Positions 3,001 to 18,000 of a DNA stretch of 27,707 nucleotides are shown here, piece by piece. The stretch comes from Candidatus Zixiibacteriota bacterium (lineage in GTDB: Bacteria; Zixibacteria; MSB-5A5; CAIYYT01), in contig JBECKX010000046.1 of the NCBI GenBank assembly GCA_040235515.1, forward strand, positions 1 to 27,707, given 5' to 3'. Every line of letters begins with the position of its first letter. Positions within the stretch are counted from its first letter, which is position 1. The position numbers are program-made.

Positions 3001-6000
3001 ACTCTGATTTTGACCAGTAATTCTCGCTGATTTTGTAGTAAATCACACCAAGAAGCGGCAGAGGGGAATCGGTAGGAGGACATCAAATAGTGAACCTAAG
3101 ACGATTTCTACCTCTTGGCGGCGCAAAAGCAGCAAAGGGCAATGCGGTTGATTCCCGGGCGGAGTCGCTCGCGGCCCGCAAATCGGGAATCGCGCGTGGC
3201 CTGGCTGCGCCGCGACTAAAGCATTTCGACAGCAACTCTGAGAGTTTGCTCGCGCTCTCGATCGACCAACACTCACTGGGCCGGTCACGGCTCGAATTGT
3301 ACCGTTTTCTGCGGGATCAGGTACCGATACTCAACTCGGTCATCTGGACCTGGGTCAGACTTTGTGCTTCCCCCTACGAATATCAGATCGTCTCGACGGT
3401 CGATGAGGCAACGGAACGACGCATCTCAGATATCATCCATGCGCTCGATTGCCGCGTATACCGCAATGGCCTGATGCAGCTCGGTGGTTTCCGTGAATTG
3501 CTGCTTCAATGCTTCGAGTCGCTCTTCACCGATGGCTCTGTCTGTGGTGAGATTCAATTGACCCCTTCAAAACGACAGGTCGACCGCTTCCTGATCGCAG
3601 ACATGCGTACGATCGAAATCGAGTCGGAAGGGGAAGCGTACTCACTCTATCAACGACACGGCGAGCGACGGACCCGACTCAATCCGCGAACCATGTTCTA
3701 CTATGGCCTCAATTCGCAACCGGGCGATCCGCGCGGAATCTCATTGCTCAAGGCTATTCCATTCGTTGCCAGGGTTGAACAGGCTCTGGTCAGTGATATG
3801 CATCGAGCGATGCGGTCGGCCGGTTACCAGCGTATTCATGTGAAGATCACACCGCCGGAAAAGCTGCCCGGTGAGGCCGATAGCGACTACATCAATCGAG
3901 CCAATAACTACTTCGATAACACCGTGGGGATGATGCGCGATTTTGGGCCCGATGTAAACCCGGTTACCTGGGATGATGTCAAGATCGAGTATGTCGGACC
4001 CTCCGCGCGCAGTTCAAGCAACAACGCCTGGTACTTGAATCACAAGTCGATGATCGAGGATATCTGTGCCGGGACCCATCTGGCTCCGTTCATGCTTGGT
4101 TACGCTTACGGTACCACGCATAACTGGGCCGAGTTCAAGTATGAACTGGTGCAACGTCAGGTCCTGACCGTACAGAATGCCGCCGCGTCCTTGCTGAACT
4201 GGATCGCGAACATCGAGCTGGCGCTGCAGGGGATCAACGCCGAGGTGCGCTTCAGCTTCGAGAACCGCGCCCATGTCGGACTGACCGACCGAGCCGCTGC
4301 GCAGAAGACTCAAATCGAGAACATAATCAAGCTCCTCGACAACGAACTGATCACGCGTGAACAGGCGCAGCGTGAACTGGAGCGAATCCGTTGAGCAGGC
4401 GTTCTTTAGTGACAATGAAAACAGACCCGGCCCCTGCTTCACTTCCTGTCCTGCGCGCTGTGTAGTCGCTACTCGCTGTACAGACGCGCACCCCTCGGGC
4501 AGCCTGGTCGCCAGAACTCGGCCGGCTGCCCACCATAAACCTTCCATTACTATTCAGAGAAAACTGCCCAATGCACAAGGGACCTTCAATTGTTATCAGC
4601 AGAGGCAATCGCTGGCGTCGCAGCGTGACAGATCCTGTACTCTTCTGCCGCGAATTCCTTGAATTCGATCCGCATCCGGGGCAGGAGGCTTGGCTACGTG
4701 GTTCGAACCACTCGCAAAACCTGCTTGTCACGGGCAATCGCTGGGGAAAATCTCACATTCAGGCGGCAAAGATTCTCCATCGTGCCATCTTTCGTATCAG
4801 GGATCTGAAGTTTGATCGGGCAAGACATTACAACATTCTCAACCTCTCGATAACGCAGGACCAAGCCAACATCATCTTCCGCAAATGCCTCCAACTACTT
4901 GAGGGAAAGCCGCTGCTTGAGTTGCTGATCCAGAGAGTCGTCCATACGCCGTTCCCACGACTGGAGTTCAGCAACGGTGCTTCCGTGATGGCAAGGAGTT
5001 CGCAGAACCGCGGAGAGTACATACTCGGACACGATTTCGACTACATCAACTTCGATGAAGTCGCCTTTGAATTGCATCCTGACTATGTCGTTGACGAGGT
5101 GTTGACGATGCGTCTTGCAGATCGCAAGGGGAGGCTTGACCTGGTCTCGACCCCATGCGGCAAGAACTGGTTTTATCGCAAATTCCTCGAACTGCAGTCG
5201 CACACCGATGGTTTTGTGCATTCGGGGTCGTCGCGTGATAATCCGTTTATCGCGCAGGAGTATGTTGCATCTCGCTCGGAAGCGCTCTCCCCGAAGCGGG
5301 TGCAGCAGAACATCGATGGCGAATTCGTCGATGCGGAAGACCAGGTCATCTCGGAGGAGAGTCTGCAGCGAGCATTAACGCAAACCACCGGGCTTGCCGG
5401 CAGGAAGGAGCACCACCGCTATCTGACCGGGTGGGATTTAGCGCGCAAGTCGACGCATACCGTCGGGGTAACGCTGGATGTCACCACGCGACCGTACCAG
5501 GTGGTAGCCGTCGAACGATTCAACCGGATCGATTGGCCGATGGTTTATGCCCGTATCCGTAAACGAAAGCTCAAGTACGGAGGAGACACGGTGATCGATT
5601 CCACCGGGTTGGGGGATGTGGTGATCTCAGATGTGGGGGATATCAAGCCTATCGGCTTCGTCTTCACGAAGCGTTCCAAATCGGAGTTGCTGCTGAATTT
5701 GCAGATGACATTTGAACGCGGCGAGCTGGGATTACCATATATCGAGTTCGGACTGGGGAGCGACCAGTACTGGAACTTTACCGACGAACTGCGAGAATTG
5801 CGCTGGGAAGAGAACAATCATTGTGATGGTGCGATGGCGCTTGCCCTGGCCCTATGGGGAATGCGGCCGGATGTCGAGAGTCCGACACGGCCGCATTTCA
5901 AGCTTGGTCAAGTGTAAGCTTACGGGCTTATGGGGAAAAGTACAGGAGGTCTCTCGGTGTGACCGAACGGGGGTGGGCTCGCAATCTAGCGCGCGTGTCT

Positions 6001-15000: not shown

Positions 15001-18000
15001 GATTGGCGCGGTGCCGCGACTGTTTCCTACACAGTTATCGGGGATGGGGTAGACAACTACCTGGCGCAGCTTGTGACTCAATCTGCAGAGATACGGGACT
15101 CGGTGGGGGTTATCCTGCAACAATTGCCTGACGGCGGGTCGGGTGCGTACCCTTGCACACTCACCACTTTTGACCAGACTAACCAGGTTGCGGTGCCGGG
15201 CGCTGCGGTTACGCTCTACAACTCCGACGAGTCCGCGCTGATCGCCTCCGGAGTCTCCGATAACAACGGTCGTCTCATCCTCGCGCTCGATGCCGACGAC
15301 TATTCGGCATACTCCCGAGCAATGAATTACAACCCGCTTCAACTACCAAAATCGATCAGCACGACATCGGGTGGGAGCAACGACACACTCTTCCTCTCCC
15401 CCTTCGCTCCCGGTGAACCGGCGGATCCCGGTCTGTGTCGCGTTTACGGCTACGTCTACAACTTGCATGGCGCACCCCTGGCTGAGGTAGTCGTCCGGGC
15501 GACACTTGAGACCAACTCTGTCGTTGCAGACGGCGCAGTTATCTCACCTTATGCGGCGAGCACGTCGACAGATACGCTGGGATATTGGTATCTTGATCTG
15601 ATTCCGACTTCACACATGCAACCTGAGCCAGCCACCTACGATTTTTCGATCTACTATCCTGCGGGAACGATTTTTCGGCGGGCAGTAGCGGTACCGGACA
15701 GCAGCAACTACTGGCTGAAGTGATACGACTAGCGGGCGGCAGGCTTCCTGCGCTCGCGCACTACTTTGAGCACATACGAGGCGAACGACAAAGGGACCAT
15801 AGCGACGGCAACATAAAGGAGTATCTGTTGCACCAGGGTGAATGGCGTGACATAGCTCATCACGAGTAATGTCCACGCCAGCGCCGTCAGTTTGCCGAGC
15901 ATGTTTGAGGTTGGGGTGTAGGTGGTCGTTGAGACGAAGAGCACGCCGGCGATAAGGATGATGAGATCACGCCCGATGATGATCGCCGCCGCCCAGATCG
16001 GGAACTCTTTGTAGATAACCAGCGCGACCACCAGGATGGCGATACCGAGTTTGTCAGCGATCGGGTCGAGCAGCTTCCCCAGTTCAGAAATTTGATTGAG
16101 CTTGCGCGCGAGGAAACCATCCAGCACGTCGGTGATGATTCCGACGCAGAGAAGCAGGAAAGCCGCGAGATCGTGATTGTAAGCGATCATGATCGCCGGC
16201 AGCGGTAGCAGCAGCAGGCGAAAAGCGGTGAGCTGGTTCGGGATTAACTTAAGTTCGCGCCAGTCGATCTTCATAGCGCTGTTAAGAAAGCGCTAGTTCT
16301 ATAATTTGGTCAAGGAAACTCTTCGATTGGTAGTGGTTCACGAGCCGCACGGCGCGGCACCGGCAGCAAAGATGAAGTTGATCAGGAACACGGCATCTGA
16401 AACCGTCGTCATACCGTCGCAGTCGGCGTCTCCATGTTCAAGCGACGCCGGTGCCTGTCCTCCACCGAAGATGTAGTTGATGAGATAGACAGCATCCCCG
16501 ATGCTGTAGGCTCCGCTGTTGTCGGCATCACCACGCAGTACCTGCGGAAGGCAGCTATACTTCATGAAGAAGTAGTTATCCTCAACCTGATCGTTCCCAT
16601 CGAGGGCACGGGCGCGAATCAAGTAGAGCAAGCCCTCATGCAGAAAACCGCCGGACGGCACCACGGCGTGGAAACCGTTGAACCCGTCAAAGTCGGTGCC
16701 TATCTGGGTATAGCTGAGTGACTGCTGTGCCGGGTACATCCCCAGCGCGAGATCGACGCGGTAGGGAGTATTGTTCGGAAGGTAACCTACGACCAGAGAA
16801 TCACCACGGGTGAGGAGATACGAGGTACGCAGCAAACCACCGACCGGGTCGTACAGCGTGACAACGAGGCTGTCGGCGGTTGAGGCGGCGTAATCGATTT
16901 TCTTGAGGCCGAGCCAGTTTCCGAACGGCCCCGCAACCGCCAGAGCTGCGGTGCCTCCTCTACCGGCATAAACCTCCTTGAGCCAGGTCCAATCCGGTTT
17001 CTGCGGCGTGCTCAGCAGTACGCGCGATTCACGTGCTTTGAGGTAGTCACGCAACGCAACCACGAGGTTGTCATCCTGCGTTCCTAACATCTCGCGAGTC
17101 GAGAAGATCTCTGCAAGTTTCTCAACCTGTTGGTCGACGCTATAGAACTGCGAGCCATTCGCCATCACTTCGATGAATCCCCGATCGAACCAATACTTGA
17201 GCATCGAAGCAACGGCGCATGGCGCTACATAGTACTCCCCGAACTCACCATTATAATTATGATTGCCGTCAGCCGGATTTCCGTTGGCATCGCCATACGA
17301 AGCACGGTTGAGTTGCTGCAGCGAGCGTTCCTCGAAACTCGACAATGCGCGATAACCGAAGGTCACCGCCACGGGGTTCTCATCGCTGATTGTCACCTCT
17401 ATCGAGTCACCCGCACAGGCAGTGCTGAAATCGGGATTCTGATTGAATTGCGGTTCCAGCGGCAGCAGGTCCAGGTATGCCGAAATCGTGTCTGAGTAGT
17501 AGATCTGTTCGGGTGTGAAGATCGAGACCCGCATCAGGTAGTTTCCCTCAGAGATTCCAAATGTGGTCATCGGCGTCGACCAGCCATTGCTGTTAGCTGC
17601 GGCGCTGACGCCGTTGCGGAGCACCGGGGTTCCATTGAAGTCTTCGCCGATCTGCCACCATTGGTTCGATTTGTAGTATTCAAACAGCGCCGAATTGAAA
17701 GTGTACTTGTCGTTCAGTTCCGCCGCCCACAGCATCTGACCCGCCACGACACGGCCGGAATCTGCCGGGAAGATAAACTTCGGTTTGGGCAGGGCACCGT
17801 CGGTGGCGTAGCCGACGCTGAAGAGATGTATCGAACCGGGGAAGTTGTAATATTCGTTATCCGCGAGATCGGAGAGCCCGTAGCCCCACTCATTCCAGTT
17901 GATGCAGAGGTATGGCGTCGTGTCGAGGGCGATACCGGGATAGAATGCCGTCATGTCGGAGGCAAAATAGAGCCCCGCGAAATATGACCCTTCGACCGCA

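Follow-up and report, generated by a model that had tools for sequence, protein, structure and literature searches.

The 27,707-nucleotide window analysed here, from a Zixibacteria genome, carries at positions 3090-15723 a block of head, packaging and neck genes of phage origin. Most likely the host keeps them for a predicted DNA-packaging particle similar to a gene transfer agent (GTA), a reading held with moderate confidence, and gene transfer is a plausible function of such a particle. The initial annotation had taken the block for an ancient, domesticated and vertically inherited phage remnant, and this is strongly supported by a capsid tree that matches the host families, by purifying selection, by the splitting of the block in several genomes and by a capsid clade that stands apart from all others.

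Composition of the block

Pfam and PHROGs scans of all ORFs in the block and its flanks reproduced the ORFs and E-values previously assigned to portal, large terminase (TerL), virion protein, major capsid protein (MCP) and a weak Ig-like match (Table 1). Besides portal and large terminase, the block encodes the HK97-type capsid protein and a small virion protein, together with a candidate protease and a scaffold-like product, followed in its 3' part by a lectin/glycosidase-like beta-propeller protein, a gp6-like head-to-tail adaptor and small proteins without an assigned role. The propeller protein and the secreted proteins are the largest products encoded 3' of the capsid gene. As claimed earlier, integrase, replication, lysis and regulatory genes are lacking: no integrase, replication, repressor or lysis family was matched by the ORFs of block and flanks, and no tRNA lies at the locus. 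The block is accordingly a phage-derived structural set without replication, integration or lysogeny control of its own, as expected of a GTA. Among the block proteins, Pfam and PHROGs revealed no tail tube, sheath, tape measure or baseplate, and family scans revealed no endolysin or clear holin, the holin family phrog_6918 being matched by one of nine neighbour ORFs only (E 0.012).

The flanks consist of ordinary cell genes (CvpA, CheR-like methyltransferase, CDP-alcohol phosphatidyltransferase, helicase and Lon), in agreement with the initial annotation, and GC content differs little between block (0.53-0.58) and flanks (0.50-0.59). The core genes are present in all 21 loci compared, from 13 families. 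The earlier description of 14 co-directional genes holds in part: 13 forward ORFs are kept in relatives, the 14th forward gene lacks conservation support, and one reverse-strand PEP-CTERM gene lies inside the block.

Table 1. Features of the gene block and its upstream region, with window coordinates and the evidence for each assignment
Feature	Position	Strand	Evidence or remark
Conserved non-coding hairpin element	2795..2915		About 180-290 nt upstream of portal gene
Portal protein	3090..4394	+	phrog_3753 1.1e-23; phrog_30703 1.8e-18
Large terminase TerL (ATPase and nuclease)	4571..5917	+	phrog_2 4.3e-38; Terminase_6N 1.9e-6; Terminase_6C 3.4e-4
PEP-CTERM sorting-signal protein, host-type gene inside cluster	5986..6447	-	Pfam PEP-CTERM 1.9e-7
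Candidate prohead maturation protease	6595..7665	+	phrog_16951 1.2e-10; position in related contigs
Small membrane-anchored coiled-coil protein	7658..7969	+	One N-terminal hydrophobic helix
Helical scaffold-like protein	8014..8409	+	Position and composition
Small virion structural protein, 139 aa	8449..8868	+	phrog_4588 1.4e-8
Major capsid protein MCP, HK97-fold family	8887..10005	+	phrog_3922 9.3e-65; Phage_capsid_4 4.3e-5
Beta-propeller protein with C-terminal beta-sandwich	10113..11534	+	Structure model, fold matches
Candidate head-to-tail adaptor, gp6-like helical fold with inserted Ig-like beta domain	11527..12381	+	Weak Ig-like match 1.3e-4 (PHROGs)
Conserved 124-aa protein	12378..12752	+	21/21 loci; mean column identity 51%
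Candidate DNA-binding protein or small terminase; small, charged and helical, with basic termini	12858..13199	+
Secreted protein (predicted), non-core	13094..14671	+	Hydrophobic signal-like segment near residue 33
Secreted protein (predicted), CarboxypepD_reg-like beta-sandwich, conserved last gene	14590..15723	+	CarboxypepD_reg 3.4e-6, below curated cut-off

Packaging and head proteins

TerL is found in 261 of the 285 phylum genomes, mostly as one match each. The residues read as its ATPase and nuclease motifs, which we take to be Walker A, Walker B, the coupling motif and four Asp of the nuclease domain, are invariant in all 15 sequences aligned. One closed genome keeps the portal and capsid genes with TerL undetectable, which indicates that DNA packaging is not kept everywhere. 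Orthologues of the portal protein (38-79% identity) lie at 14 of 20 loci, and at another genome site in all five genomes in which the block is split. The 113-aa candidate small terminase, conserved in its core and present in 18 of 21 loci, gave a faint small-terminase match in one of five orthologues (E 0.026), the only such match in the block by family scans.

The candidate prohead protease has a conserved N-terminal part of ~210 aa, with invariant His92, Ser145 and a Cys/His cluster, and a variable C-terminal part (250-780 aa in relatives). Its assignment draws on related phage-like contigs, where the homologue lies between portal and MCP and weakly matches a head maturation protease (7e-5); Peptidase_S78 matches only one of 20 members, at E 0.07. 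The scaffold-like gene, so termed from its position and composition, lies directly 5' of the small virion protein and MCP genes; its product diverges fast (36-47% identity within the family), and other families have a 137-aa helical ORF at this position. The small virion protein, located where a decoration or cement protein would be expected, is the best-conserved gene of the cluster, being present in 21/21 loci with a mean column identity of 73% and a dN/dS of 0.045-0.067.

Propeller, neck and exported proteins

The propeller and adaptor proteins occur in all 21 loci and were modelled with pLDDT of 91.8 and 88.1, respectively. Structural comparison of the propeller, Foldseek included, ranks lectins, sialidase-like hydrolases and polysaccharide lyases highest (Z 21-24); among its phage matches are a chain of the LME-1 portal-tail complex and gp425 of phage G. 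On the basis of the model, it is a candidate attachment protein (spike or fibre) that would bind or cleave glycans. The helical part of the adaptor matches neck and adaptor proteins of phiCD508 (Z 8.9), Mu (8.8), T4 (gp13, 8.6), GP4 (8.4), P74-26 (8.3), HK97 (gp6, 8.0) and SU10 (7.8), as well as an RcGTA virion chain (7.2), and the atlas leads, at 0.86-0.90, are Phage_Gp19, the gp6-like connector and the SU10 adaptor. Helical folds can reach Z values of 7-9 by chance, and the protein is accordingly treated as a candidate adaptor. The 124-aa protein, which has no PDB sequence match and no atlas family, is suggested by its position to be a neck or head-closure component.

The small coiled-coil protein has a hydrophobic helix followed by a conserved helical part in all 18 of the 21 loci where it occurs, and no family match below 1e-3. 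The last gene is present in 19/21 loci, with an N-terminal hydrophobic signal-like segment in most of them. Two conserved members of the cluster are predicted to be exported or membrane-anchored, which is unusual for capsid parts and counts against the GTA-like reading. The non-core secreted protein, found in 5/21 loci only and without family match in PHROGs and Pfam, probably starts further 3' than annotated. At the site of the PEP-CTERM gene, an ORF of its sequence cluster is found in 9/21 loci. The neck adaptor and the conserved exported and membrane-anchored members are described here for the first time.

Distribution, descent and selection

The earlier observation of a single-copy, nearly phylum-wide capsid gene, with identity falling with kinship, was confirmed. 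The gene is present in 255/285 phylum genomes (E<=1e-10), nearly always as one match, in 189/198 high-quality genomes, in 118/130 genera and in 19/21 genomes of its own family, with identities of 86% within the genus, 68-76% across the family and 57-68% beyond it. About 10% of the genomes lack it, some of them at 95-99% completeness, which counts against the GTA-like reading. It is reasonable to place the cluster among the oldest of its type, although two families lack the capsid gene (0/2 and 0/1 genomes).

On trees, the MCPs of the phylum form a tight clade. The 14 host-family labels require 13 changes on the capsid tree, which is the minimum, and none of 200 shuffles was as low (mean 31.6). 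For the cluster genes dS is saturated and dN/dS is about 0.05-0.15, such that selection is purifying and proceeds at rates like those of flanking host genes; amino-acid identities within the genus are 86, 80 and 79 for MCP, TerL and portal versus 81 and 76 for the flanking CvpA and CDP-OH transferase. Capsid tree, dN/dS and distribution together display the vertical inheritance under purifying selection that characterizes GTAs.

The block had been thought to lie at the same place in other genera. Within the family this is the case, with CvpA as neighbour in two loci and the CDP-OH transferase in 3/3, but elsewhere the only recurring neighbour is DUF7451/dockerin (9/21 loci). Nor is the block intact everywhere: in five genomes from several families (5/20 loci compared), a distance of 19-411 kb separates portal and TerL from the capsid module, and every cluster gene is still an open frame. 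This separation fits a domesticated element and virtually excludes an excising prophage. Beyond the listed members, no conserved family of unknown genes accompanies either the portal-TerL pair or the capsid module across the 21 loci. Losses also occur: one genome has portal, TerL and protease followed directly by the last gene, the propeller gene is split in the closed genome without TerL, and some near-complete genomes lack everything.

A conserved hairpin upstream of the portal gene

Likewise new here is a hairpin 5' of the portal gene that is conserved across the family, being single-copy in 21/21 family genomes, with 84-98% nucleotide identity despite the saturated dS of neighbouring genes; blastn detected it in 0/264 genomes of other families. 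Compensatory changes are seen in 3 of 31 predicted pairs, the fold z is -4.2 for the minus strand and -0.6 for the plus strand, and Rfam gave no match. In one genome it lies away from the portal gene. The element may be a leader or regulatory RNA, or may encode a small RNA from the minus strand.

Relatives outside the phylum

A search of 1.84 billion representatives places the capsid proteins in a clade apart, with 63% identity inside and <=41% outside. The nearest sequenced phages have an MCP 32-35% identical (five records) and TerL <=29%. Related uncultured phage-like contigs show the order small terminase, large terminase, portal, phrog_16951 protein and phrog_3922 capsid protein. Among 2.9 million viral contigs of IMG/VR, the pattern of the small virion protein occurs in a single one, which is a host-like fragment with the host-type layout of the 3090-15723 region. 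A sister system, reported here for the first time, is present in 29/35 genomes of a second phylum, probably Hinthialibacterota, where MCP, portal and a TerL-like gene are dispersed over several loci.

Proposed particle and alternative explanations

The most likely course of events is that an ancestor shared by most of the phylum, as sampled, took over the head, packaging and neck set, which has since been inherited vertically as host genes. The capsid, scaffold-like, candidate protease and small virion proteins, all encoded in the block, would assemble into a shell on the portal ring, which TerL, with its ATPase and nuclease motifs intact, would fill with DNA that it then cuts. The portal would be closed by the gp6-like adaptor, perhaps together with the 124-aa protein, and the lectin/glycosidase-like propeller protein may confer affinity for surface glycans. 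The product would be a short-necked or tailless DNA-filled particle, namely a GTA-like viriform. The invariant TerL motifs and the presence of a neck adaptor argue for such a sealed, DNA-filled head. That it would carry host DNA, in portions too short to hold the complete gene set, is hinted at indirectly by the intact TerL motifs and by the dispersal of the set over as much as 411 kb in some genomes.

The host could also keep the particle for a purpose other than gene transfer, such as a defence decoy or sink for incoming phage parts or DNA, the export or disposal of DNA (e.g. matrix DNA) or a capsid-derived compartment, and this deserves a substantial though minor share of belief. No delivery apparatus was found in the block with Pfam and PHROGs, the capsid module occurs without TerL in one closed genome, and the membrane-anchored and secreted members, together with surface-protein neighbours (PEP-CTERM and dockerin/DUF7451), suggest a link to the cell envelope. 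Against it, portal and TerL are kept in ~90% of the genomes with invariant catalytic residues, the neck adaptor is kept in 21/21 loci, and no cargo-like gene or targeting peptide was identified; portal, TerL and adaptor would be pointless unless DNA were packaged and sealed in. It is unlikely that the heads are completed, as in capsid-forming satellites, by tails from other genome loci or from a co-infecting phage. The conserved adaptor is of a type that normally docks a tail, and the multi-locus arrangement in some genomes and in the second phylum makes further unlinked parts possible, yet no further conserved family accompanies either module in the 21 loci, block and flanks lack integrase, replication gene and satellite-type regulator, and it is hard to see how reliance on a helper phage could persist across a whole phylum.

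A conserved site-specific prophage, or another active mobile element infecting the whole phylum, had already been judged unlikely, and is now close to refuted. All recognisable genes are phage-derived and IMG/VR lists one fragment as a viral contig, but that contig has the host-type layout, the element is single-copy, each host family forms a monophyletic group in the capsid tree, substitution rates are host-like, host genes are interleaved and the cluster is split over distant loci in five genomes. A functional temperate prophage was rejected, with no integrase or recombinase, repressor, replication, lysis or tail gene and no attachment site found in block and flanks, and with the cluster split in five genomes. 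Even less credible is a decaying, functionless remnant: the losses noted above may represent decay in single lineages, but phylum-wide it is refuted by open frames across 13 families, dN/dS of 0.05-0.15 and invariant active-site residues.

The GTA-like particle may be extended, tentatively and with doubt prevailing, to a broader proposal, whereby tail-less capsid DNA-packaging particles, domesticated from one phage family, form an old conserved "organelle" of several little-known phyla and move chromosomal DNA between cells with the help of exported or membrane-anchored host-side partners. Its genes would lie together in Zixibacteria and at several separate loci in the second phylum. If true, this would represent a new mechanistic type of GTA, and the most widely conserved one known.

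Comparison with known systems

Lambda/HK97-like head modules have the same parts list as the Zixibacteria cluster and a gene order that nearly agrees with it downstream from the protease, yet the cluster lacks an upstream small terminase and a tail module, its portal and terminase genes are swapped, host genes are interleaved and the element is fixed in host chromosomes. The cf-PICI satellites have capsid, portal, protease and head-tail connector genes of their own, without a tail; they are mobile and carry integrase, replication genes, regulators and small terminase, without a large terminase. The cluster shows the reverse gene content and tracks host families, and a capsid-forming satellite was rejected on account of the TerL gene and the lack of integrase and replication genes. 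Encapsulins resemble the cluster in that the host retains a gene for an HK97-fold shell protein; they are paired with cargo enzymes and have no portal, terminase or adaptor. An encapsulin system was rejected, since portal, TerL and adaptor are present and conserved and no cargo is recognisable.

The RcGTA-type GTAs of Alphaproteobacteria differ from the cluster in their demonstrated function, which for the cluster is a predicted one, and in a full siphovirus-type tail (tube, tape measure, baseplate and fibres); no such tail module adjoins the head genes among the block proteins scanned with Pfam and PHROGs. Gene order also differs, with portal before terminase in the cluster, which is phylum-wide and belongs to another phylum. 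The direct link to RcGTA is the adaptor fold match (Z 7.2), the likeness otherwise being one of parts list. In RcGTA-type elements, a phage-derived structural cluster has been inherited vertically over a deep clade under purifying selection, the "genome" can spread over several loci and the small terminase is hard to recognise. Both RcGTA and the Zixibacteria cluster combine portal, large terminase, protease, HK97-type capsid and gp6-like adaptor in a set without replication or integration genes.

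Organization of the block

The window is one entire contig of 27.7 kb. The block, at 3090-15723, comprises 13 forward ORFs conserved in relatives and one reverse-strand PEP-CTERM gene, and it is flanked by cell genes coding for CvpA, a CheR-like methyltransferase, a CDP-alcohol phosphatidyltransferase, a DUF7451/dockerin protein, a helicase and Lon. The PHROGs and Pfam matches from which the initial annotation had recognized the phage-like genes of the block were reproduced exactly. The forward order begins with the portal and the large terminase (TerL), followed by a 356-aa protein, a small membrane-anchored protein with a single hydrophobic helix plus a coiled coil, a helical scaffold-like protein, a 139-aa virion protein and the major capsid protein (MCP). 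In TerL, residues which we take to be the Walker A, Walker B and coupling motifs, together with four acidic residues of the nuclease domain, are invariant in all 15 sequences compared.

The 356-aa protein possesses a conserved N-terminal region of ~210 residues, in which one His and one Ser are invariant and a Cys/His cluster is present. Its homologue in the nearest phage-like contigs is located between portal and capsid, and shows a weak head-maturation-protease match, on account of which the protein is read as a candidate prohead protease. Peptidase_S78 matched one of its 20 members (E 0.07), and profile searches of PDB sequences gave no match for either this protein or the small virion protein. 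In many families (loci L031, L033, L039-L042 and L044 of the relatives), the candidate protease reaches ~600 aa, owing to a C-terminal extension absent from the 356-aa form of the window. Two of the 20 members show a weak match to an ATP-dependent DNA ligase domain (E 0.0076), which may be due to chance.

Coordinates of the block genes and associated features, in the window and in fetched loci of relatives (L numbers; genomes, G numbers)
Feature	Position	Strand	Remarks
Non-coding hairpin, ~100 nt	window 2795-2915		upstream of portal gene; nearly invariant across its family
Portal	window 3090-4394	+
TerL	window 4571-5917	+
PEP-CTERM sorting-signal protein gene	window 5986-6447	-	inside phage-derived block; same place in 9/21 loci
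Candidate protease	window 6595-7665	+
Membrane-anchored protein	window 7658-7969	+
Scaffold-like protein	window 8014-8409	+
Small virion protein	window 8449-8868	+
MCP	window 8887-10005	+
Propeller protein	window 10113-11534	+
Adaptor	window 11527-12381	+
124-aa protein	window 12378-12752	+
Small basic protein	window 12858-13199	+
Secreted proteins	window 13094-14671, 14590-15723	+	the second is the last gene
Dockerin-bearing surface proteins (DUF7451+dockerin, BACON+dockerin)	window 16338-18614 and 25269-27551		flanking block
Multiplied dockerin-bearing proteins	L053:5500-12000		inside block, one genome
Post-block ORF, example	L036:4216-4527	-
Post-block ORF, example	L044:15941-16279	+
Lineage-specific erosion loci	L053 (G028), L054 (G085), L055 (G069)
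Second-phylum capsid modules	L078-L091, e.g. L078:9052-15817		small virion protein, MCP, phrog_16951 protein

Downstream of the capsid, the 473-aa propeller protein is modeled with a pLDDT of 91.8 as a beta-propeller with a beta-sandwich, a fold most similar to those of lectins, sialidase-like hydrolases and polysaccharide lyases, with further matches to phage tail or spike chains. Its profile gave only weak matches in PDB sequences, the best of which (1.7e-4) is an uncharacterized Bacteroides ovatus protein. The adaptor (284 aa; pLDDT 88.1) contains an inserted Ig-like domain, and its terminal helices match, at Z 7.2-8.9, head-to-tail adaptors from many phages as well as from the RcGTA virion. 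This helical part was recognized through a wide VIA search and not by Foldseek, which with the whole model matched the inserted beta domain and nothing else. The adaptor profile had no match of note in PDB sequences, and its alignment is too variable for a scan of the collection. The 124-aa protein encoded downstream of the adaptor gene in the window is of unknown fold, matches no PDB sequence in a profile search and no named cluster in an atlas search; a predicted complex of the two, at a score of 0.00, speaks neither for nor against an interaction. A small basic helical protein (113 aa) comes next, and then two proteins with signal-like N-termini, the last of which is conserved across the phylum. 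In short, the head is complete, the packaging motor and a neck piece are present, and a recognizable tail is absent from the block.

Directly after the last gene, nine of the 21 loci compared, from several families, carry an ORF of ~100-160 aa with an N-terminal hydrophobic helix and a helical tail, which is absent at that position in the family of the window. A faint holin match (E 0.012) is seen for one of the nine; the ORF could encode a release factor.

Surrounding and inserted elements

The hairpin upstream of the portal gene is present in single copy in all 21 genomes of the family, at a nucleotide identity of 84-98%, and had no blastn match in the other 264 genomes. Compensatory changes occur in three of its 31 predicted pairs, a U-run follows it on the minus strand, and in one genome it lies apart from the portal gene. 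A search of Rfam at gathering score was negative for the whole window, as was one of 2300-3100 at E<=1. The element may act as an operon leader or antiterminator, or represent a small RNA.

Host-type surface-protein genes are located within the block itself. In addition to the PEP-CTERM gene, a gene for a secreted protein of ~235 aa lies on the opposite strand between the protease and membrane-anchored protein genes of six other loci, and the DUF7451 protein is a recurrent opposite-strand neighbor (9/21 loci).

Distribution and inheritance

The MCP gene was detected in 255 of the 285 Zixibacteria genomes, in 189 of the 198 of high quality and in 118 of 130 genera; the corresponding values for TerL are 261/285, 190/198 and 123/130. 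Each is nearly always a single match per genome. The phylum name is taken solely from the nearest atlas clusters, which bear the label Candidatus Zixiibacteriota. The locus comparison covered 20 fetched 20-kb loci from 13 families and the window (n=21). The small virion protein, capsid, propeller protein, adaptor and 124-aa protein occur in all 21, the candidate protease in 20, the last secreted protein in 19, and the membrane-anchored and small basic proteins in 18 each.

A maximum-likelihood capsid tree (quick search; 46 sequences of the phylum and four outgroups) required 13 changes for its 14 host-family labels, which is the minimum; the mean upon shuffling was 31.6, and none of 200 shuffles was as low. 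All nine multi-member families are monophyletic (SH-aLRT 82-100). The block proteins exhibit identities on par with those of flanking host genes, and even comparisons within the genus show saturation at synonymous sites. In a set of 1.84 billion representative proteins, the capsid's own clade is represented at 63% identity, and the next best match is at 41%. Sequenced phages are remote, with capsid identities of just 32-35% (five records) and TerL identities of at most 29%. An old phage head, packaging and neck system kept by its host is well supported.

The arrangement of the genes is variable. Five genomes, from four families, have the portal-TerL pair on the same chromosome as the capsid module but 19, 90, 101, 110 or 411 kb away from it. 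The adaptor and 124-aa genes are swapped in three loci, and one locus contains insertions. Such separation and reordering, the host-type genes inside the block and the invariant TerL residues are read as signs of domestication in addition to the gene content.

When 2.9 million viral contigs were scanned for the pattern of the small virion protein, a single one was retrieved, and its layout is the host-type one of the window. This contig, L096 (IMG/VR UViG, 11.1 kb), is a fragment of the host cluster in the window's order, upstream element and PEP-CTERM gene included. It is nevertheless filed as viral, and virus-calling pipelines may therefore misfile the element. The window MCP as single query, a method of low sensitivity, found no relative among viral contigs, nor did the nearest outgroup capsid protein (P0004), which elsewhere occurs on short metagenome contigs only, plus one Zixi-type contig.

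Losses and erosion

In a closed genome of 99% completeness, portal and capsid genes are present and TerL is absent, even by TerL profile; the propeller gene there is broken into two frames, which may reflect decay or sequencing error. In another 99%-complete genome, a deletion of the capsid-to-neck segment leaves the last gene directly behind portal, TerL and protease. Two genomes (98% and 95% complete) are without capsid, TerL and portal genes, and two families are without the system (0/2 and 0/1 genomes). In view of these cases, the system is dispensable in some lineages. As further observations, ~7 kb of dockerin-type genes lie between the portal and protease genes of the closed TerL-less genome (L053), and a third eroded genome has portal and TerL with no capsid module within 20 kb.

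A counterpart in a second phylum

Among the nearest outgroup capsid proteins is one (40% identity) that falls in the same 90% cluster as a protein of Candidatus Hinthialibacter antarcticus, and the second phylum is probably Ca. Hinthialibacterota. A related capsid gene is found in 29 of its 35 genomes (G285-G319), mostly as a single match and at 54-91% identity, in a compact module between housekeeping genes with homologues of the small virion protein and candidate protease (12/14 loci). Five of five genomes examined carry a single portal gene of the same PHROG family, on other contigs, and none of 14 control genomes has a match. A TerL-like gene is present in four of the five (E<=1e-28), its family also matching 11 of the 14 controls. 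The portal and TerL-like genes being on other contigs, the layout is dispersed. Adaptor and 124-aa profiles show no similarity to the downstream genes of this phylum. In a wider capsid tree, the Zixibacteria and second-phylum clades are each tight and short-branched and are not sisters, a topology that would favor two domestications from one phage family.

Functional interpretation and known systems

The most economical functional reading is a DNA-packaging particle that serves the host, resembling a gene transfer agent (GTA); a motor with intact active sites, the portal and the portal-closing adaptor are all conserved. It is modestly favored. The main rival, a particle with a role other than transfer, is distinctly less probable. 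No holin, endolysin or small terminase was identified, the holin and small terminase searches giving faint single matches. Among sequencing runs, the look-up returned three DNA runs from one sediment study and none of RNA. Completion of the heads by unlinked or foreign tails is improbable.

The proposal of an active prophage is close to excluded; by PHROGs and Pfam the window contains no integrase, replication, repressor, lysis or tail families, it carries no tRNA, and the block shows no GC shift relative to its flanks. Close to excluded, too, is a dead remnant; dN/dS is 0.05-0.15 for the portal, capsid and small virion protein, and all genes are open frames in the five genomes with split loci.

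If the GTA-like reading is true, a head-and-neck-only system with a phylum-long history and a parallel in a second phylum would widen the host and architecture range of phage domestication. It would also provide uncultivated sediment bacteria with a path for gene exchange, and would serve as a clean natural experiment in the retention of phage parts by a host. Full-text searches of a literature library with the phylum's name forms returned no paper that connects Zixibacteria to a gene transfer agent or to the present capsid cluster, and searches without the name returned none on a cluster of this kind. By the tail module that defines the RcGTA family, the block falls outside it. Few gene transfer agents are known (five types by experiment), and to our knowledge all of them are tailed and confined to clades below phylum rank.
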